DNA of 64,000 nt from a virus (Duplodnaviria; Caudoviricetes). The DNA lies in the IMG/VR virus record IMGVR_UViG_3300026522_000021. One strand, written 5' to 3'. The notes under the pieces were generated by a model. The model had not been told where the DNA came from, made no database searches, and was given only the letters and a program-made list of their open reading frames with translations. Made by a program: the position numbers and the translations under genes. Of this stretch, positions 29,170-61,898 are shown in pieces (within the stretch, counting starts at the first letter, position 1; every line of letters begins with the position of its first letter).

Positions 29170-29198
29170 ATTATACTAAATACAAGATAGCTTGTCAA
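29170..29198 (-). promoter_or_regulatory. Consensus SigA promoter
   Basis: TTGACA-17 nt-TATAAT. Confidence 0.85.
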
Positions 29199-30502
29199 TT
29201 ACTATCTTGTATTATTTCTTGATCTTCTTTCAGTTCTTTCGCCCATGTAACGAGCCACTTATTCTTATTCTTGAATGGATCTCTCATTACTTCGTCTAAT
29301 AGAAGATGAAGGACATGCCCGATTTCTTTACTTGGCTCATACCCAATCGCAATTAAATCATCGCCAGAAATATCCAACTTATCAAGGCTGCAACATTCAT
29401 TATTGCCGATAATAATTCCTGCGTCTATCTTCATCTGTTTTGCAATTTTTAAAAACTTAAATTTATTGAGATTGCCAGACACAGTAATCTTCGCTTGCCA
29501 CAAATCACACAGATTTTTTACGTTTCTAAAACCTATATCGTTTATAAGTTTTCGTGCTGCGTACTTTCGCTCTTCGCTTTCATATTTAATATGCTTATAA
29601 TCATCTAAATGTTTAAGCAGATCAATAACTGATTTGCTTGTCTGATTATCCATGCGGATATTAGACAATACTTCTTTAGGATTATCGGTAAACTGTAATA
29701 ACAGAGCCAACCGCACGACAAGCTCATCATCCCTGTTTGTTGCCATCAATGACTCTATAACTTGATGATGTTCAAATAGTTGTCCTGCTGTTTTTATCCT
29801 ATCATCAAAATAAGGCGTTAAACAATAGAACAAATCTAAGCATTTATACAATACACTAAACGAACTTGGAAACTGCGTCTGCATCATCTTGCAAAGTTCA
29901 GAACATATTCTTTCTTTGGATATATTAGATAACAGTTCACGTTGATAGCCCATATAATAAAGCGTATCGCGATCAATCCTGAAACCTAACGTAATTGCAA
30001 ATCTTAACGCCCTTAATATGCGCAGCGCATCCTCTTCAAATCGTTCAGAAGGAAAACCAACGCAACGAATAATCCCATCTTCCAAATCATTCAGCCCATT
30101 GAACAAATCAACAATGCCGACATCTGGATTATACGCCATAGCATTGATAGTGAAATCGCGCCGTTTCAAATCATCTTCAAGCCTTTCGGTAAAATTCACA
30201 TTATCAGGATGCCGACCATCACTATATGTTCCGTCAATTCTGAATGTGGTTATTTCATATGGTTCATCTTCTATCACTACAGTGACAGTGCCATGTTTGA
30301 TTCCAGTTTCTATTACCTTGTAATCTTGAAACACTTTCTCTACAACTTCAGGGAGCAAAGGCGTAGTTATATCCCAATCGCTCGGCTCTTTTCCTAAGAA
30401 CGTATCGCGCACACAACCGCCAACCACATAGCCTATACTCCCATATTCTTTAAGTTTATTTAAAATCAGTTCTACATTTTCAGGAAGGTGTATAATTCCC
30501 AT
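29195..30502 (-). CDS. cca: CCA-adding enzyme / tRNA nucleotidyltransferase
   Basis: VGGCVRD, DWDI, EITTFR, RRDFTINA, RFEEDALRILRALRF. Confidence 0.9.
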   Translation of the reverse strand: MGIIHLPENVELILNKLKEYGSIGYVVGGCVRDTFLGKEPSDWDITTPLLPEVVEKVFQDYKVIETGIKHGTVTVVIEDEPYEITTFRIDGTYSDGRHPDNVNFTERLEDDLKRRDFTINAMAYNPDVGIVDLFNGLNDLEDGIIRCVGFPSERFEEDALRILRALRFAITLGFRIDRDTLYYMGYQRELLSNISKERICSELCKMMQTQFPSSFSVLYKCLDLFYCLTPYFDDRIKTAGQLFEHHQVIESLMATNRDDELVVRLALLLQFTDNPKEVLSNIRMDNQTSKSVIDLLKHLDDYKHIKYESEERKYAARKLINDIGFRNVKNLCDLWQAKITVSGNLNKFKFLKIAKQMKIDAGIIIGNNECCSLDKLDISGDDLIAIGYEPSKEIGHVLHLLLDEVMRDPFKNKNKWLVTWAKELKEDQEIIQDSN

Positions 30503-31526
30503 TCAACACACTCCAATTCGCATCCGCGAGAAACTTGTTAATTCTATTGTAATCTGGATTAGATGGAAGTTGGCTATGTTCTTTTAAATATTCAAGTTTG
30601 TTTTCCATTTCATCAACGATTTCATAAAATTCTTTTGTTGGTTGTCTATTATCGTCAAGATATTTGCCGTTTCTAATCTCCATCAAGAAATCATGATCTT
30701 TGGCTCTATATGTTACAATCTTGCCATCTTCAAGAATGTCAAAACACATCAAGAAAAGCCTAATTAAATGAGTCATGTGCTTTGCCAACTTATCATGTTC
30801 GATAGCATGTTGATTGCGCTTTCCAAGTTTAGAATAATCTTTGACGATATTATTCATTTCAGACCACATACACTTATAATCGCGAAGAGGATAATGTTTT
30901 AACGACACATCCATAAAGATTTCTGTATCATAATCTTCTTGTTCTGACTTATCAATGTATAGCCTGATAGAATCTTCTGGATAATAGAAATATTTTTCAG
31001 GATAAGAATACCTTGCGTTTTCAATACTTGCCAGAATATGATGTTCCCTTTGTTCTTGGTTAACCAACCTAACAGCTTTGTTGTCGAGCCTTCGAAGATG
31101 GCTATTGGCATAACCGCCAAAAGAATGAACCGCTCTTTTTGACAAGAACATATCTGCATTGTCAATCAACGCCTGTCCAACATCGGAAACATAAAGATAC
31201 TGCCAAGGTTCTAATCCAAGAATTTCAATAGTATTGGGGTTACAATTCGACAACAGATTGATAATCTTTTCAAGCGAATAAACCGTTGTATCCGTAGCTT
31301 CATTAACAACCTGATCGAAACCTTTTCTTGTCAAAATATCTTCAGGCGAATGCGTTGCCACGCCACGAATATCAATATCACTATTCTCATTATTCGTACC
31401 ATAAGCATAACTGCCACCTAATCCAAGAAGAATAATATTATCGCCCAATGGCTTTTCTCTCAGGAAATTATATTCTTCAGACTGTACCTTCGCTTTAATT
31501 TCATCAATGTTCATATTTGAAATCAC
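30480..31526 (-). CDS. Pol-beta-like nucleotidyltransferase (RlaP/YcgL-like)
   Basis: GGSYAYGT...SDIDIRG, NPNTIE. Confidence 0.8.
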   Translation of the reverse strand: MISNMNIDEIKAKVQSEEYNFLREKPLGDNIILLGLGGSYAYGTNNENSDIDIRGVATHSPEDILTRKGFDQVVNEATDTTVYSLEKIINLLSNCNPNTIEILGLEPWQYLYVSDVGQALIDNADMFLSKRAVHSFGGYANSHLRRLDNKAVRLVNQEQREHHILASIENARYSYPEKYFYYPEDSIRLYIDKSEQEDYDTEIFMDVSLKHYPLRDYKCMWSEMNNIVKDYSKLGKRNQHAIEHDKLAKHMTHLIRLFLMCFDILEDGKIVTYRAKDHDFLMEIRNGKYLDDNRQPTKEFYEIVDEMENKLEYLKEHSQLPSNPDYNRINKFLADANWSVLNGNYTPS

Positions 31527-42747: not shown

Positions 42748-42839
42748 CAAGGCGCATTTGTTGTTTGGTGTCCTTGTCGGACAAATACGATAACCCTAAT
42801 CATCAGCTTGTAAACATTTGAAATTGCTGTATGCGCCTT
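42748..42839 (-). ncRNA. CAGCAA-module RNA A (free-standing)
   Basis: AAGGCGCA-TACAGCAA...TGCGCCTTG terminal stem. Confidence 0.7.
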
Positions 42840-44021: not shown

Positions 44022-44088
44022 CTAAGCGCATATAAAACTTTATCAATGACTGTCAGAAAAAGATTTTATAGTTTGCTGTTCGCGCTTA
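44022..44088 (-). ncRNA. CAGCAA-module RNA B (free-standing)
   Basis: TAAGCGCG-AACAGCAA...TGCGCTTAG. Confidence 0.7.
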
Positions 44089-44098
44089 AATCTATGAT

Positions 44099-45598
44099 TT
44101 ACAGTAATCCTTCTACGGCTTCTCTTACTTTCGCGTAGCGTTCTCCATTCAGCGTTTCAAGAAGAACTTTGTAAGGATCAACCTGATTGCTCATGAACAT
44201 CTTCAGGATTTGAACCGAAAATCCACTGCAAAGAATAAGCCCCATATCATTCTGTTGCATCGGGATTGTTCCATTCAAGCGACCGCTTAAATTCCAGAAA
44301 CAAATCTTCGGAAGTTTATATCCTGCGTCCTCGAATTCCTGTGCGATTTCATCAAACAGGCTCTTGTTGAGATTGTGTGAACGACCGTCAAACTGCATGT
44401 CGGAACAAATCACGATCATCTTCGGCATATCTTCCGCAGAAGTATGATTTCTCTTTGCTGTTTTCAGGATCAGCATCATAGTCTTATAGATGTTCGTGTT
44501 TGAACAATCGGATTCGCGCAAGGAAAGATCAACTTTATCTGCAAGCGAATCGCAATTTGACAGATCGACAATCTTCGGATTGGATGAGAAGGTAATAAAC
44601 TTATCTTTCCAATCGCCTGTATTGTGTTCTGACATGTAAATTGCAAGTGCGGTTGCTACATCTAAAGGTGTACCACTTCCTGCAAAACTTCCCCATGTCA
44701 TAGAACCAGAACCATCACGAACAATCAGTGTGTTCTCTACAGACAGATCAGGAAGTGCCTTCCACAGCGCTTCGAGCGTTGCATCTTTTCTGCATCTATT
44801 CTGGCGATACTTCAGGCAGATCTCATGCGGATTAAGCGTGCTTGCGTTAATCTTTGCAGTGCCTTTTTCAAGCGATGCAAGATATTCGCGTCTACGATCC
44901 TCATCATTCCGTAAGAATGCGCTATTGTAGATCAGATTAGCTTTAGAAGGCACAGTTTCATAATTGATCTTATCCCATTTCTTAGCACTCATTTTGACCT
45001 CTACAACATCAAGATACTTTCTAAGTTTGGATAAAGTCTTTCTGTACTTCTTCTCTGTCCATCCAAGTTCACGGCAGATTGTTTTAGCTCTGTCAACTGT
45101 TATCTTGGATGATGCATTGACGCTCGGCATCCACTTCGCACACAGAGAAATCGACTTGCCTTCCTTCATGTTGGCTTTATCTTCTTTCAGCTGCGCCTTG
45201 ATTAAAGCGATTGCCTTTCCTCTCGTTCTTTCATCGTCAAGCATAACCATGACGCTATCCCAACGATTATAGAATGGGATAAGATCAATGATAGCCTTTG
45301 CGATCTTCGGCTGTTTTTCTGCAAGATAGCTCAGTCCAGCTCTGAAAGCTTTTCTCTCACCAAGTCCTTCACGGACATCGCCAAGATAGAAAAGATATTC
45401 AAGCGCTGTCAGCTTATCCTCAAAGAAAACTTTCATGAAATCTTCTTTGATCGCTTCAGGAAATCTGTTACGCATAGCAGATACTCCAAAGTTGAAATCA
45501 AGAAGTTTCTTTCCTGCTGTTGCATAGGCGATCGCGCCGTTTGTGGTTACTGATTTGCGAGTGTTCAATTCATTTTGCATTTCATCGAAGAAACTCAT
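44099..45598 (-). CDS. DUF2828-type TROVE/Ro60-like protein with vWA domain
   Basis: DVREGLGER, AKWMPS, YRKTL, MIDAS motif DGSGS, SDMQFD, FWNL, SGFS. Confidence 0.8.
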   Translation of the reverse strand: MSFFDEMQNELNTRKSVTTNGAIAYATAGKKLLDFNFGVSAMRNRFPEAIKEDFMKVFFEDKLTALEYLFYLGDVREGLGERKAFRAGLSYLAEKQPKIAKAIIDLIPFYNRWDSVMVMLDDERTRGKAIALIKAQLKEDKANMKEGKSISLCAKWMPSVNASSKITVDRAKTICRELGWTEKKYRKTLSKLRKYLDVVEVKMSAKKWDKINYETVPSKANLIYNSAFLRNDEDRRREYLASLEKGTAKINASTLNPHEICLKYRQNRCRKDATLEALWKALPDLSVENTLIVRDGSGSMTWGSFAGSGTPLDVATALAIYMSEHNTGDWKDKFITFSSNPKIVDLSNCDSLADKVDLSLRESDCSNTNIYKTMMLILKTAKRNHTSAEDMPKMIVICSDMQFDGRSHNLNKSLFDEIAQEFEDAGYKLPKICFWNLSGRLNGTIPMQQNDMGLILCSGFSVQILKMFMSNQVDPYKVLLETLNGERYAKVREAVEGLL

Positions 45599-45638: not shown

Positions 45639-45704
45639 CAAGGCACTGGTTGTGGTTGTAAGATTAAAAGTCTTATCCATAATAGTGGTTGCTGTATGTG
45701 CCTT
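45639..45704 (-). ncRNA. CAGCAA-module RNA C displaying a Lys(UUU) anticodon stem-loop
   Basis: AAGGCAC-ATACAGCAA...TAAGA-CTTTTAA-TCTTA...GTGCCTTG. Confidence 0.75.
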
Positions 45705-45712
45705 AAATGTAT

Positions 45713-45830
45713 AGCGCACGATTGGATTCGAACCAATGACAAATTCTTCTGTGTATTAAGTTGCTGATTGCGATTATCGCTAACCGCGTTTAACAAATTA
45801 AAACTGCACTACCAACTGTGCTACGTGCGC
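45713..45830 (-). ncRNA. tRNA-like chimera G with CAGCAA module
   Basis: GCGCACG/CGTGCGC acceptor stem, D and T arms; insert GCGGTTA-GCGA-TAATCGC-AATCAGCAA. Confidence 0.75.
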
Positions 45831-45846
45831 CATCCCTTTCGGGAAA

Positions 45847-46002
45847 CAGCAGTGACAGGAATCGAACCTGTGCTTGCAGCTTGACCAAGTAAACTTGCTG
45901 TGTGTTCCTTTAATTCCCCGACTCTAACTCGTCTATGCGGTTACTCTCGGTGGTAACAAGAAACATTTATATGCTGCCGTGTTCCCACTTCACTACACTG
46001 CC
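45847..46002 (-). ncRNA. tRNA-like chimera H with CAGCAA module
   Basis: GGCAGTG/CACTGCT acceptor stem, GCAGC/GCTGC anticodon stem; insert TGTTTCTT...AAGGAACA-CACAGCAA. Confidence 0.75.
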
Positions 46003-46005
46003 GCG

Positions 46006-46130
46006 CCCATCGTGAAGGATTCGAACCTTCCCCTCAAGTTTTGCAGACTTGTAATTGATATATAACTTTGCTGTAGGTGTTTACACTAAACACACAATCA
46101 AAAGATATGCTACCTCTACACCAACGATGG
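46006..46130 (-). ncRNA. tRNA-like chimera I with CAGCAA module plus a Cys(GCA) anticodon stem-loop
   Basis: CCATCGT/ACGATGG acceptor stem; GTGTTTA-GTG-TAAACAC-CTACAGCAA; CAAGT-CTGCAAA-ACTTG. Confidence 0.75.
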
Positions 46131-46147
46131 GATATTCAATTTTTAAA

Positions 46148-46212
46148 CAAGACGCTATGATGGTAATATAAGTTAACAGCTTATTCCTTCATATAATTGC
46201 TGTATGCGTCTT
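46148..46212 (-). ncRNA. CAGCAA-module RNA D displaying an Asn(GUU) anticodon stem-loop
   Basis: AAGACGC-ATACAGCAA...ATAAG-CTGTTAA-CTTAT...GCGTCTTG. Confidence 0.75.
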
Positions 46213-46224
46213 TCAGTTTTAACA

Positions 46225-46315
46225 CAAGGCACTTTATTTTGATGGACTTGAACCATCTCGCAAAGACTTTGAATGTTTTTACTTTAACCGATGTTAAGTT
46301 TGCTGTATGTGCCTT
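46225..46315 (-). ncRNA. CAGCAA-module RNA E containing a T-arm
   Basis: AAGGCAC-ATACAGCAA...GATGG-TTCAAGT-CCATC...GTGCCTTG. Confidence 0.72.
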
Positions 46316-46336: not shown

Positions 46337-46365
46337 ATTATAGCATATCGTTCTCGGCTTTGCAA
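46337..46365 (-). promoter_or_regulatory. SigA-type promoter for the CAGCAA RNA array and the TROVE-like gene
   Basis: TTGCAA-17 nt-TATAAT with TG extension. Confidence 0.75.
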
Positions 46366-46478
46366 GTATTATTTTGAATTATTTTTAATGTAGTTTTGAT
46401 TTCTCGCGATCACTACAAGCGCACAGTTTCTTACTTTTTATGATGTTAGTTTAGAACTGCAAAAGCAACCATTCATCG

Positions 46479-46551
46479 TGCGCCAGATGGGACTCGAACC
46501 CATGACTTTTCGATTAAAAGTCGAATACTCTACCATCTGAGTTACTGGCGC
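46479..46551 (-). tRNA. tRNA-Lys(TTT)
   Basis: TTCGA-CT TTT AA-TCGAA; canonical arms. Confidence 0.92.
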
Positions 46552-51623: not shown

Positions 51624-52442
51624 CTATTCACCGATATAAACCAACTTGTCTATGTATTCTCTATCTTCTCCTGCAAAAATCGGTATATTATCATCGGCAA
51701 CCCAATCAGAGCCACAGTATTTTACACAACTTCCTCGTTTCATAACGGTAGGATAATCATCCCAATTTACACCTTTTTCTTTGAGTAACATTTCCTTTAT
51801 TTCATTGCAACTCTTATTCTGAAGTTGTTTCTGCGTGAAGCATGATTGCCCAAGCATTTGTATACTATTTCTTATTGCATCAAGCTGTCTCCAATAGAAA
51901 TAATTTGTCACTTCTTCTTTTGTAAGATTAAAACATCTGGAGTCGAACATTGCGCCCCTTATTTTGGCTTTATAATAGACTTCATGTTGCTTCAATATTT
52001 TTCTTTCGTTATCTGATAAACGTCTATTTGTTCCACCTTCATCCCAATCTTCAATATTTTCTCTTCCAAACATATCAATGTTTGCCTCAAAATTTCTATT
52101 GAATATAAGAGTTGCTATAGAAGCTGTTACGCTACATACCTTTTGCACTTCATAGCCAAAGAACGCTTCAGTGTTTAATGATTTATAATCAATCAGCAAC
52201 AAAGAAATCTCATCGGATTGATGATAACCAAGAACGCATCCCTGAATGTTCACGCATAAATACTTCATCGTATCTTGCATAGTTTTTATCAATAAAGAAT
52301 CAAACGGCTTTTCAAAACATCTTGTAAAAGTATGAAATGCTTTTCCGTCAATGCGTATAATAACTGGCATCCTTCTTATTAAAGAGTTTTTTGGAACGCT
52401 CTCATACGTTTTCATCCTCTTTGCCAAATCGCTATTATCCAT
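51624..52442 (-). CDS. tRNA(His) guanylyltransferase Thg1-like protein
   Basis: RIDGKAFHTFT, QSDEIS, FDSR, WRQLDA.RNS. Confidence 0.92.
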   Translation of the reverse strand: MDNSDLAKRMKTYESVPKNSLIRRMPVIIRIDGKAFHTFTRCFEKPFDSLLIKTMQDTMKYLCVNIQGCVLGYHQSDEISLLLIDYKSLNTEAFFGYEVQKVCSVTASIATLIFNRNFEANIDMFGRENIEDWDEGGTNRRLSDNERKILKQHEVYYKAKIRGAMFDSRCFNLTKEEVTNYFYWRQLDAIRNSIQMLGQSCFTQKQLQNKSCNEIKEMLLKEKGVNWDDYPTVMKRGSCVKYCGSDWVADDNIPIFAGEDREYIDKLVYIGE

Positions 52443-58470: not shown

Positions 58471-58974
58471 TTAGTAAGCATCAAGAATTGGAAACTGTGA
58501 CTGCATAGCACGGCAGATGCGCATAAGCATATCAACGTCTTTTATCTCGCCCATATAGTATTTTAAATTTTCCTTCTGCACAGTTGTTAACTGCTCTATA
58601 AGTAGTGTACTCGGCGCAGTCAGTCCGTATTTCTTATGATCCCATATCTCCACATGGCAAGGCAGATTTCTTTTGTTCATTTTAGTTGTCAACGGAATAG
58701 CATTTATCACCGTGCTATGCTGATTGTTCTTGTCATTCGAGATAATAAATACTGGTCTATGACCGCCCTGAATACTGCCATCCTGTGACGGAAGATTAGC
58801 CATCCAGATTTCTCCGCATTTAACATCACGACTTTCAGCCCCGATGAATTCAACACTATTATTTTCGTATTTAATGAAGAACGTCATAGGCTGCGCAGAT
58901 TTTCCATCTCGTCTTGCCTGTGTTCTTATTCTTGTTGATGCATTCATCATAAGCCTCCAGTCTCCAGATACCAT
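58471..58974 (-). CDS. PemK/MazF-family endoribonuclease
   Basis: GEIWMANL..QDGSIQGGHRPVFIISND..N, PLTT, EQL. Confidence 0.85.
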   Translation of the reverse strand: MVSGDWRLMMNASTRIRTQARRDGKSAQPMTFFIKYENNSVEFIGAESRDVKCGEIWMANLPSQDGSIQGGHRPVFIISNDKNNQHSTVINAIPLTTKMNKRNLPCHVEIWDHKKYGLTAPSTLLIEQLTTVQKENLKYYMGEIKDVDMLMRICRAMQSQFPILDAY

Positions 58975-59706
58975 TAAAAATCATCTAATGGTTTAGTTAT
59001 GTTGTCATTCGATTTCCTTTTTACATAGAAATCATATCCGGGTTTAATCAACACCAGTTTTCCACATCTCGGAAGATCATAACCAAAGTAAGGCTTTTTA
59101 TCTTTATTCTTATTCAGTTTGATCCTCATGAACCGTCCAACCGCATTGATAATTTCCACCGTGCGATCATCTGATTTGTTTGTGTATTTGATTGTACCAT
59201 CATTCTTTAAATCGCCAGTGCCAATGAATAACCCTGTTGTCTTGTGGTTTATTCCAATAAAGTATCTATTCCAATTCATGTTACCACTCCTGAAATATGT
59301 GGTGTACTGCATCGAACAATACACCACATTTTCCATTATTCTTCTGTAGCTTCATTATAATGTTTTTCGTTTTTATAAATGTTCTCCTCGTATTCAAATG
59401 CTTCTTTTGCATCCTCAAAACATTTACCGTCACTTGCCATCCATGTAGCGTTTACAAGAGTAAGACGATCTTTAATTCTTGTACGATAGCTTTTTGAAAT
59501 GAAGCCGCTGTTGCCATCAAAATACTGCTCTGGTATCAGTTCCTTCGCCCTAACCTTCATCCATCCGTTGCCATTATTATTTCCTGCCGCCGAAGGAGAA
59601 TAGATCAAAGCCATGATATGATTTTCCTGAAACACGCTAAACACATCAACCATACAGTTATGTTTCTTATAATACATTCTCTCCATCGTTATCGCCCCCA
59701 AACGTG

Positions 59707-60858
59707 TTACATGTCTACTTCTTCAGGCTCGTTCATGAAGTCAGAAGAAACATCCTCATGTTTTTCAATATCGGATTTTTCTGCTTCTTCAACGCCATCA
59801 TCTTCATGTTCATCGGATGCCTCGATATCCACATCATCGAAGAACCGATCCCATACCTTTTCGATCTCATCATGTCTGCGCTTGATATTCGCGTTCTTTG
59901 CAGAACCACCCTTGCAAGCATCGGAGTAAGCATCGGACACGATCACGCCATTTCCGAAAAGTTCTACCATGAAATCGCCCATCAGCTTATCAGAAATCTC
60001 ATCATCAATAGCCTGTTTGATCCACGGAACAAGCGAGATCATATGCGTTTCAGAAACCATTTTCTTTCTAACAGCCTTCGCAACCTTCGCATTGTCGTAC
60101 TCCTCAAGCACATTATAGATTGCGTAAATCTTATCCAGAACAGAAACGACCTCATCGCGCTCGGCATCGCTCATCTTCGTTTCCTGCATCACTTCGTTGA
60201 AAGTTCTGCTTTCAAAAGATACATCATCAATGTCCTCGTTCAGCATCATCCATACCTTCATGATGATCGGGAGCTGCTTTCTGGTTGCAAGCGCCTTTTC
60301 GGTCATGGTGTTCTGGAAAAGCTCATGCTTTCCAATATCAGAAACGGTGATGATGTCAACACAGTTAGCAATGTTGCGCTCTTTAGTGGAAAGGGGCTTT
60401 CCATTGTTCAGCTTCGCGAACAGCATCCGAACCTGTTCAGGAGTGATATCCTCGTAATAGTAGATCGTCAGGTGATAATCCTTGATTGCATCCTGAATCT
60501 CTTCGGGAAGGTCTTTAAAGTATTTCCCTTCAAGCCATTCCGTCTGCTCATTGCCCTCTGCATCAGTATATGTAATCTCAGGAACGCCAATCAGGTAATA
60601 CTCGTTCTCGATGAAGCCACGAATAGCATTGATGCGCTGCTTTCCATCAAGGAAATCATATGTTCTTCCGTCAACCTTCTTTGCGTAAAATGGCGGTACA
60701 GGATATCCTTCAATCAGGGAATGAATCAGGTTACTCTTCCTTGTCTGTTCCCATACATAGGATCTCTGGATGATATTGTCGAAACTGAATGTTCCGTTTC
60801 CTGCCATTTTCGCGATCTGCTTACAACTCCATGTAATGTTTGCTTTGTTAAGTGCCAT
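59707..60858 (-). CDS. DUF262 (ParB/Srx-like) protein
   Basis: QRSYVW, LIHSL..GYPVP, DGKQR, FAKLNNG; probable start MALNK. Confidence 0.82.
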   Translation of the reverse strand: MALNKANITWSCKQIAKMAGNGTFSFDNIIQRSYVWEQTRKSNLIHSLIEGYPVPPFYAKKVDGRTYDFLDGKQRINAIRGFIENEYYLIGVPEITYTDAEGNEQTEWLEGKYFKDLPEEIQDAIKDYHLTIYYYEDITPEQVRMLFAKLNNGKPLSTKERNIANCVDIITVSDIGKHELFQNTMTEKALATRKQLPIIMKVWMMLNEDIDDVSFESRTFNEVMQETKMSDAERDEVVSVLDKIYAIYNVLEEYDNAKVAKAVRKKMVSETHMISLVPWIKQAIDDEISDKLMGDFMVELFGNGVIVSDAYSDACKGGSAKNANIKRRHDEIEKVWDRFFDDVDIEASDEHEDDGVEEAEKSDIEKHEDVSSDFMNEPEEVDM

Positions 60859-60920
60859 TTCTTTATCCTCCTTTGTTTGATTTGCTTTGTGTTCTTTGTT
60901 TACTACCTCTCTATGTGAAC

Positions 60921-60949
60921 ATGTTACCACATAAAGAGGTAGATGTCAA
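60921..60949 (-). promoter_or_regulatory. SigA-type promoter
   Basis: TTGACA-17 nt-TAACAT with TG extension. Confidence 0.65.
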
Positions 60950-60974
60950 CTATTATTTTGAATTATTTTTTAAT

Positions 60975-61898
60975 TTATTTAATCAAGCTGTCAACCAATC
61001 CCATGATATCATTGATTGCTTCGATATGGACAGATGCTTCAGTCGCGTTTGCGTTTCTCTGTCCTTCAGAATAAGCCATTGCGATTATGTCTCGCAGATC
61101 GGAAACCTCGATGCTGATAACTGGCTTGTCAGAAACTTCTTTATATTCTTTATCACCTGTCACATAGTCATCAAAGAAACCGCCCATATCATCATAATAC
61201 TGATTGACTTTTTCTTTGGTTAATCCGATATAATGTTTAGTAGTTTTTGTATCGGAGTGATTGTAGATCGTCTGCAACAATTCCATGCTGTCATAATCAT
61301 TCGGATGGATCATTCTGGAGATCATACCGAAAGTTTTTCTTGTGCTATGCGTCCCAACATTATAGGTAATTCCGATAACATCTGCTGCTTTCTTCAGCGC
61401 CTTGCGATAACCATCGCTGGTGATGACTGTTCCTCTATGCGTCCCTGTCAGCTGCATGAACACGTATTCGTGATAGCCATTCTTCTCAGGTTTTACACCA
61501 GTCTTTTCAATGTACTTTTCAATAGCTTTTTTACAAGCGCTATTGATACGAGGATTCGCAAGCTTGTCTGTTTTATCCTCTACAATCTCAAGGATCTCAT
61601 CTCTGATTTTCCCTGTCTGCGGATTGTAAAGATGCTCCCATGTAAGATTGAGTGTATCGCCAACGCGCCTCGCCATGTTGCATCCTAAGATGAAGAGCAG
61701 ATAGTGAAGCCACATCTCATTCTCTTCAAAGTATTCGATCATCTTCTTCATATCTTCCAACTGGAACGGATATACTTCAGACTTGCGACCTTTCTTTTTA
61801 TTATTGGCTTTTTTCTCCTGACGAGGGAATTCAATGATGCTCGAATACCCTGTTCTTTCTTCCGTATCATTCCAGATATTCAATGCTCTGACTGCCAT
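60975..61898 (-). CDS. Tyrosine recombinase/integrase
   Basis: RVGD, KT, HSTRKTF, HS...T.HY catalytic residues. Confidence 0.88.
   Translation of the reverse strand: MAVRALNIWNDTEERTGYSSIIEFPRQEKKANNKKKGRKSEVYPFQLEDMKKMIEYFEENEMWLHYLLFILGCNMARRVGDTLNLTWEHLYNPQTGKIRDEILEIVEDKTDKLANPRINSACKKAIEKYIEKTGVKPEKNGYHEYVFMQLTGTHRGTVITSDGYRKALKKAADVIGITYNVGTHSTRKTFGMISRMIHPNDYDSMELLQTIYNHSDTKTTKHYIGLTKEKVNQYYDDMGGFFDDYVTGDKEYKEVSDKPVISIEVSDLRDIIAMAYSEGQRNANATEASVHIEAINDIMGLVDSLIK

Follow-up and report, generated by a model that had tools for sequence, protein, structure and literature searches.

Bacteria and phages encode Ro60 (Rsr) proteins together with Y RNAs, including YrlA, YrlB and Yrn1 (Chen et al. 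2014, PMC4201824; Rfam RF02553), and Thermus phage phiLo carries a Ro60 with the RNAs Yrl1 and Yrl2 (PMC12135203). Y RNAs bind Ro60 through a stem made of their paired ends, a second module gates the Ro60 ring or tethers it to other proteins, and bacterial YrlA has a tRNA-like module whose use has not been established (PMC4201824, PMC12135203). Competitive inhibition of an anticodon nuclease was put forward by Hughes et al. as a possible role of this module (PMC7790460). The role of bacterial and phage Ro60 particles and the reason for the tRNA mimicry of Y RNAs have been open since 2014. We analyzed a 64,000-nucleotide (nt) stretch of Caudoviricetes virus DNA (IMG/VR record IMGVR_UViG_3300026522_000021; hereafter the window), in which small structured RNAs, among them RNAs C, D and E, are encoded on the - strand upstream of an open reading frame (ORF) of 499 amino acids (aa). 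Comparing sequences and predicted folds, we read these RNAs as Y-RNA-like partners of a Ro60-like particle, with mimics of tRNA anticodon arms as the variable payload that they carry on a constant handle.

The 499-aa protein contains the Pfam domains DUF2828 and DUF7788, with a weak match to VWA_2, a von Willebrand factor A (vWA) domain. The DGSGS motif of its MIDAS (metal ion-dependent adhesion site) was invariant in an alignment of homologues, and the protein belongs to phrog_850, "RNA-binding protein" (E = 4e-126). We searched with an AlphaFold model (predicted local distance difference test score 72.5) using Foldseek, and the 13 top matches were all Ro60/TROVE chains or entries (E = 4e-8 to 1.6e-4). 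VIA-align against Ro60/TROVE gave Z = 12-14.8 over 380-395 residues, spanning residues 14-494, compared with Z of about 10 for matches to the vWA domain only. The Ro60 of Thermus phage phiLo was among the structural matches. The likeness to Ro60 came from fold comparison only: among solved structures, neither phmmer with the protein nor a 13-sequence profile found a match, and Pfam reports DUF2828 and DUF7788 instead of the TROVE sequence family. In its model, the protein has the architecture of Ro60, that is, a HEAT-repeat ring followed by a C-terminal vWA domain with a MIDAS. Homologues were present in 711 phage records, with those of mycobacteriophages annotated as "Ro-like RNA binding protein".

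The locus resembles the Ro60/Y RNA system in five respects. A ring protein with a vWA domain is encoded beside several small RNA genes; the RNA ends pair in a stem with a conserved motif for (here putative) protein binding; a variable module mimics part of a tRNA, as do the possible T arm of M. smegmatis YrlB and the possible anticodon arm of D. radiodurans Yrn1; there is a link to tRNA-damage repair genes; and a handle RNA of Mycobacterium phage LeBron matches Rfam YrlA with E = 1.6e-5. By contrast, the protein is of the DUF2828/DUF7788 type and not TROVE, the handle motif is ACAGCAA instead of the GNCGAA(N)G of YrlA, there are up to nine RNAs per locus, and a payload can consist of an anticodon arm of the canonical 7-nt kind and nothing else, with the triplet exchanged from one relative to another. 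The YrlA signature (RF02553, gathering score 69 bits) was absent: the best score in the window was 20.5 bits, and the LeBron handle RNA reached 39.8 bits; no unit attained the gathering score. In working terms the system is a Ro60/Y-RNA particle, yet it falls outside both the TROVE family and the YrlA model and uses a different motif.

Two other systems bear comparison. The dictyostelid Class I RNAs (Kjellin et al. 2021, PMC7919456; Rfam RF01414) are 42-65 nt long, a short covarying stem joins the 5′ end to the 3′ end, and immediately behind the 5′ strand stands an unstructured, conserved motif of 11 nt whose position 6 (C) and positions 9-11 (CAA) are invariant, with the rest variable (PMC7919456). 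The handle RNAs fit the same architecture, a likeness by published description; the Rfam Class I model gave no match to RNAs C, D or E at E up to 5 or 10. Unlike the handle RNAs, Class I RNAs come from eukaryotic nuclear genes with their own promoter element, have an RNA recognition motif protein as known binder and carry no reported tRNA-like payload. The 11-nt motif of the Class I RNAs ends in UACAGCAA.

The second system is that of phage T5. PARIS AriB cleaves the tRNAs Lys(UUU), Thr(UGU) and Asn(GUU), and T5 counters it with its own versions of these three tRNAs (PMC12409363), while T5 tRNA-Tyr acts against a retron (bioRxiv 10.1101/2023.03.15.532788). The present loci share with these nuclease-resistant tRNAs the identities Lys-UUU, Asn-GUU and Thr-UGU, the setting in phage tRNA clusters and, apparently, a conflict over tRNA cleavage. 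The T5 tRNAs are complete and chargeable and replace the cleaved ones, whereas charging is impossible for the anticodon-arm RNAs described here, which have a protein handle and no acceptor, D or T arm. In the searchable literature, we found no description of DUF2828-linked RNAs or of anticodon-arm payloads, and the query "DUF2828" returned unrelated plant and tardigrade papers.

Around the 499-aa ORF we found nine handle elements, each a helix with ACAGCAA. The handle of RNAs C, D and E is a 7-base-pair (bp) helix that joins the RNA's 5′ end to its 3′ end, its 5′ strand directly preceding a single-stranded AUACAGCAA. Handle copies were of two kinds, either closing a small RNA or forming a hairpin inserted in a tRNA-like body that Rfam calls as a tRNA (inserts of 56-90 nt in the anticodon arm). 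Six structured elements follow one another in an array on the - strand (46315-45640), the last of them 41 nt upstream of the ORF (Table 1), and a promoter-like site upstream of RNA E had the top score (10/12) across 42.5-47.2 kb.

A preliminary description of this DNA, made from the letters alone, had noticed isolated tRNA parts in these RNAs. Its two anticodon-type hairpins are present on the - strand as described: RNA C has a perfect 5-bp stem with the loop CUUUUAA, and RNA D a 5-bp stem with the loop CUGUUAA. The RNA C loop is also, as it had said, that of the real tRNA-Lys(UUU) encoded 800 nt upstream, in which it sits on a different stem (UUCGA-CUUUUAA-UCGAA, 46509-46525). For RNA E, the reported T arm exists but is not the whole content. 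Positions 9-63 of the Rfam tRNA model aligned at 46241-46300 with 23 bits (gathering score 29 bits), covering the D arm, an imperfect anticodon arm (loop AUUCAAA) and the T arm; RNA E is therefore a tRNA body in which the handle's closing helix takes the place of the acceptor stem. Its T arm was kept as GAUGG-UUCGAGU-CCAUC in the related loci L001 and L010. The anticodon-like arm was not conserved in the homologues from these two loci, so its meaning is weak. In two further loci (L012 1471-1572 and L016 5384-5487), the handle closes full D, anticodon and T arms with no acceptor stem, with the anticodons UGA and UUG, respectively; these RNAs are the full-size counterpart of RNA E.

None of RNAs C, D and E has the complete cloverleaf of tRNA (RF00005: acceptor, D, anticodon and T arms). 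RNAs C and D matched no Rfam family at E up to 5-10, and neither was called as a tRNA by ARAGORN or Rfam. Fold z-scores were weak (-2.2 for C, -0.1 for D and -1.3 for E). Comparison supplies the support for the structures.

For this comparison we used 90 loci whose protein is 42-84% identical to that of the window, plus the window itself, and counted handle-closed units of 45-115 nt. The gene strand had 323 such units, the opposite strand 19. The preliminary description had expected homologous RNAs to be enriched for 7-nt anticodon-type loops, and they were. Among 236 distinct units from the 90 related loci, 44 contained a CU-NNN-AA loop on a perfect 5-bp stem, compared with 0.4 ± 0.6 (maximum 3) in dinucleotide shuffles, and 59 contained a YU-NNN-R-N loop with T-loops excluded, compared with 6.9 ± 2.9. 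Perfect 5-bp stems with any 7-nt loop numbered 115, against 62 in shuffles, and 7 nt was the only loop length enriched; T-loop hairpins (UUCRANY) occurred in 14 units (0.14 in shuffles). When hairpins were picked by geometry alone, the loop logo showed C32 at 47% (null 13%), U33 at 58% (35%), A37 at 53% (39%) and A38 at 61% (38%). The loop of RNA D, CUGUUAA, was found in nine distinct units of other loci, on eight different stems. In the 64-kb window, both strands together have nine perfect 5-bp stems with a CU-NNN-AA loop, and five of these lie in this cluster, in two real tRNAs, RNA C, RNA D and one chimera. The enrichment supports the display of isolated tRNA parts on a ribonucleoprotein particle.

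Covariation was evident in an alignment of 20 Lys-type units (A2). The seven loop letters and CAGCAA were invariant, while all five stem pairs changed on both sides and remained 96% paired. The closing helix was 100% paired, with six of its seven pairs covarying. The covariation score was 0.596 versus 0.176 and was reached by 0 out of 500 shuffles; in slid registers, pairing dropped to 31-49%. RNAalifold, unaided, predicted the same two helices, that is, the closing helix and the stem of the Lys arm. The short helix UGG/CCA beneath the Lys arm was 67% paired. In columns 40-41 of the alignment, a near-invariant UG stands 5′ of the Lys arm and can pair with the downstream CA (UGG/CCA) or with the CA of ACAGCAA, the latter being the choice of RNAalifold. 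The strand bias, together with G-U pairs within the helices, places the structure at the RNA level. DNA-level repeats were ruled out on the same two grounds, and chance hairpins by the shuffles and the covariation.

The anticodon triplet varies on scaffolds that otherwise stay nearly the same. The scaffold AUAGA-CU NNN AA-UCUAU carries UUU, GUU, GCU, UGA, UGU or GAU in different units, and in close phages the orthologous units that lie right behind the stop codon of the gene are 93-95% identical outside the triplet, yet have UGU, GCU or GUU. Across 15 pairs with a scaffold identity of at least 85%, a small sample of non-independent pairs, there were 0.289 differences per site in the triplet versus 0.053 elsewhere, the exchanges being UGU/GCU/GUU, UGU/AUU and UUU/GUU. 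Judging by these rates, the triplet itself is under selection. Counted by locus, the payloads were UUU (34), GUU (12), UGU (9), UGA (6), GCU (5) and GUA (3), a spectrum unlike that of the real tRNAs in the same loci, which are chiefly CAU (45), UUG (32) and UAA (25). In all 56 loci with both a Lys payload and a resident tRNA-Lys, the two stems differed, indicating that the payloads are not recent copies of resident tRNA genes; copying of the neighboring tRNA-Lys was ruled out on this basis.

The RNA and the protein gene travel together well beyond the close relatives. Among viral contigs, a single-protein search found no homologues, and an alignment-based search was required to find them; the phage collection contained no DNA near-identical to the window. 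The small RNA genes adjoin the protein gene in the same orientation, with paired ends beside a conserved motif, as expected of Y RNAs. The handle also adjoins the gene in phages of Enterococcus, Bacillus (Tsamsa), Listeria, E. coli (Felix O1-like) and Mycobacterium (LeBron), whose proteins are 33-39% identical to the window protein, and in these distant phages the domain that it encloses is often tRNA-like and permuted, of the YrlA type. A search of IMG/VR with the RNA only (pattern ACAGCAA-N(8-30)-GACTTTTAATC) returned at least 117 further viral stretches. Of 80 matching stretches examined, 68 had the closing helix, and in 34 the short length of DNA that is stored included a DUF2828 homologue (21-60% identical, most 31-60%). 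The Lys unit was present in two cultured phages. Five handle units lie within 400 nt upstream of the DUF2828 gene of Aeromonas phage 4_4572 (L213 1540-1900), including UUUGA-CUUUUAA-UCAAA and a 4-bp stem with the loop CUCAUAA (Met/Ile type), and all five are unannotated in the record. In Pseudomonas phage Milchi, the Lys unit lies immediately upstream of the real tRNA-Lys. We regard it as secure that RNAs C, D and E belong to a family of handle RNAs tied to a Ro60-like gene.

Anticodon nucleases are common anti-phage effectors. We propose that RNAs C, D and E would be transcribed together as an array of Y-RNA-like small RNAs that partner the Ro60-like protein. The constant handle would dock each RNA on the Ro60-like ring, and the variable payload would present a copied tRNA piece: the Lys(UUU) anticodon arm in RNA C, the Asn(GUU) anticodon arm in RNA D and, in RNA E, a tRNA body without its acceptor stem, its T arm being what is conserved. 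The particle would thus offer tRNA parts to proteins that recognize anticodon loops. Its likeliest targets would be host anticodon nucleases used in anti-phage defense, for which the RNAs would be competitive bait, acting alongside the phage's own tRNAs and tRNA-repair enzymes. A decoy function of C- and D-type RNAs is plausible on circumstantial grounds, namely the payload spectrum, the triplet swapping and the repair-gene context. Most payloads are Lys-UUU, Asn-GUU or Thr-UGU, the target set of AriB (PMC12409363). Because we infer the bait function, we give the statement as a whole, from handle RNAs partnering the Ro60-like protein to payloads baiting anticodon readers, a probability of about 0.5; the baited factor and the benefit to the phage, as named here, are presumptive.

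Several observations weigh against this reading. About three quarters of the handle units contain no perfect anticodon-type hairpin, and the small units examined from Bacillus, Listeria and E. coli phages showed no clear anticodon arm, so baiting of anticodon readers cannot be the sole role of the family. The units are related by descent, and counts such as 44 or 59 out of 236 overstate the number of independent events. AU-rich composition, together with how common tRNAs with U36 and A37 are, could explain part of the agreement between the payloads and the targets of AriB. Within loci, a payload and a real tRNA of the same anticodon did not co-occur significantly, and the idea that the payload anticodon tracks the resident real tRNA was dropped. 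The arm of RNA D is thermodynamically not distinctive (z = -0.1), and it is absent from the closest relatives, loci L001-L003, indicating that individual payloads are dispensable. In L001 (3401-3460), as in L002 and L003, where the protein is 84% identical, a deletion destroys the Asn-type arm of the RNA D orthologue (CUAUUAC) and leaves the handle intact; payloads thus turn over faster than handles.

Bait is not the only function that this anatomy would suit. The payload might be deliberately cleavable, such that a nuclease cut dismantles the handle RNA and frees or activates the ring for damaged tRNAs together with the phage repair enzymes, much as a Y RNA gates the cavity of Ro60. Such a sensor would show the same covariation, loop enrichment and triplet swapping in the same repair-gene context, and the present results do not separate it from an uncleaved competitor. 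It would fit the established gate and tether roles of Y RNAs (PMC4201824) and the response of the Salmonella rsr-yrlBA-rtcBA operon to cleaved tRNAs; Salmonella YrlA itself, however, is not cleaved by the SOS-induced nuclease (PMC7790460). We consider a cleavable payload unlikely.

An improbable alternative is that the payloads tether other host factors that read anticodons, such as the enzymes for N6-threonylcarbamoyladenosine or N6-isopentenyladenosine at position 37 (t6A37/i6A37), Tgt, aminoacyl-tRNA synthetases or the ribosomal decoding site, for host takeover or tRNA quality control rather than counter-defense. U33 and A37-A38 are kept in nearly all payloads, and most triplets end in U36 or A36. 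Real tRNAs of these classes receive t6A or i6A. Tgt reads a U33-G34-U35 element in minihelices, and CUGUUAA includes this element. Tethering is also a known use of Y RNAs, which link Ro60 to PNPase (PMC4201824, PMC12135203). However, no single modification enzyme or synthetase spans the Lys, Asn, Thr and both Ser payloads, the commonest payloads are known nuclease targets, and fast triplet swapping on near-identical scaffolds suits an arms race better than housekeeping enzymes.

The arms could also be neutral leftovers, with the handle being a mobile or duplicating module that lands in or beside tRNA genes and the arms being decaying remnants or stabilizing hairpins. The insertion of the handle into tRNA bodies, the decay of the RNA D arm in L001-L003 and the many units without a tRNA-like hairpin would all be expected in this case. 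We nonetheless hold it to be very improbable, because covariation largely refutes it: all five stem pairs covary around an unvarying loop at loci whose proteins are 42-84% identical. The roughly 100-fold enrichment over shuffles, the payload stems that never match the resident tRNA-Lys and a payload spectrum unlike that of the neighboring tRNAs are further points against it. That the free arms act in trans to supply anticodons missing from the tRNA chimeras, as the preliminary description had also considered, merits almost no credence even though the two kinds of RNA are encoded next to each other: decoding leaves no way to position a hairpin that is a separate molecule, chimeras and free arms share no complementarity or docking element, many loci (for example, that of the Aeromonas phage) have free arms and no chimeras, and not every chimera lacks an anticodon arm, since one (46006-46130) keeps an intact Cys-type arm of its own (CAAGU-CUGCAAA-ACUUG, 46035-46051).

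Returning to the competitive-bait reading, we tentatively consider a further possibility, that of a modular, re-targetable anti-defense particle in which a few point mutations exchange the payload anticodon arm to match the tRNA attacked by the local host's nuclease (PrrC, PARIS AriB, colicin E5-like, retron or Cas13-type). If so, the tRNA-mimic domain of bacterial Y RNAs would at last have a function. The mimicry here is explicit and modular, a bare anticodon arm on a constant handle in which the loop is kept, the stem drifts and the triplet is swapped. The idea that a tRNA mimic acts as a competitive inhibitor thereby becomes open to direct experiment, for which short RNAs, known nucleases and cultured phages (4_4572 and Milchi) can be used. 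If the bait reading is true, it would add an RNA-based counter-defense to the conflict over tRNA cleavage and account for hundreds of unannotated gaps in phage tRNA clusters.

Table 1. Positions of the RNA elements, their tRNA-like parts and neighboring genes in the window.
Feature	Position	Strand	Basis or remark
Real tRNA-Lys(UUU)	46478-46551	-	ARAGORN; Rfam 75.4 bits
Promoter-like site, TTGCAA-17-TATAAT with extended TG, upstream of RNA E	46337-46365	-	Consensus match only
RNA E, handle AAGGCAC/GUGCCUU with AUACAGCAA, closing an acceptor-less tRNA body	46226-46315	-	Scan for helix plus CAGCAA
Imperfect anticodon-like arm of RNA E, AAAAC-AUUCAAA-GUCUU	46263-46279	-	Rfam alignment; one mismatch
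T-arm mimic of RNA E, GAUGG-UUCAAGU-CCAUC	46241-46257	-	In minimum-free-energy and centroid folds
RNA D, Asn-type payload, handle AAGACGC/GCGUCUU with AUACAGCAA	46149-46212	-	
Asn(GUU)-type anticodon-arm mimic of RNA D, AUAAG-CUGUUAA-CUUAU	46168-46184	-	Perfect 5-bp stem
tRNA-like chimera, handle hairpin inserted after D arm	46006-46130	-	Rfam tRNA 28.2 bits; fold
tRNA-like chimera, 90-nt insert with ACACAGCAA in anticodon arm	45847-46002	-	Rfam tRNA 46.4 bits
tRNA-like chimera, 56-nt insert with AAUCAGCAA	45713-45830	-	Rfam tRNA 47.4 bits; fold z = -3.5
RNA C, Lys-type payload, short helix UGG/CCA, handle AAGGCAC/GUGCCUU with AUACAGCAA	45640-45704	-	Fold
Lys(UUU)-type anticodon-arm mimic of RNA C, UAAGA-CUUUUAA-UCUUA	45659-45675	-	Perfect 5-bp stem
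Ro60-like protein gene (DUF2828 and DUF7788)	44099-45598	-	Pfam; phrog_850; fold comparison
Handle RNA directly 3′ of the protein gene, AAGCGCG with AACAGCAA ... GCGCUU	44022-44089	-	Kept in L001-L003
tRNA-like chimera, 66-nt insert with CGCAGCAA	43825-43952	-	Rfam tRNA 46.8 bits; fold z = -3.3
Handle RNA between tRNA-Met and tRNA-Leu, AAGGCGC with AUACAGCAA ... GCGCCUU	42749-42839	-	

In the chimera with the Cys-type arm, the handle hairpin sits between the D arm and the anticodon arm, and the anticodon is not displaced. Elsewhere in the window, a CCA-adding enzyme (PolyA_pol head), an RlaP nucleotidyltransferase (RNA-repair associated) and a Thg1-like enzyme are encoded at 29195-31526 and 51624-52442. 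Together with YqeY, two phosphoesterases, a P-loop protein and a transfer-messenger RNA, all likewise encoded in the window, these three form, around the RNA array, a toolkit for the maintenance and repair of tRNA, and the window also encodes tRNAs. In Listeria phage LP-064, a match to ROOL RNA (L093 1465-2016) of 87.4 bits, just short of the gathering score of 99.1 bits, lies about 1 kb upstream of the DUF2828 gene, and an RtcB-like ligase is encoded about 1.3 kb downstream of that gene. Some MazF toxins cleave tRNA anticodon loops. At 58471-61898 of the window, genes for a PemK/MazF-like endoribonuclease toxin, a GmrSD-type restriction enzyme and a phage integrase lie adjacent to one another.

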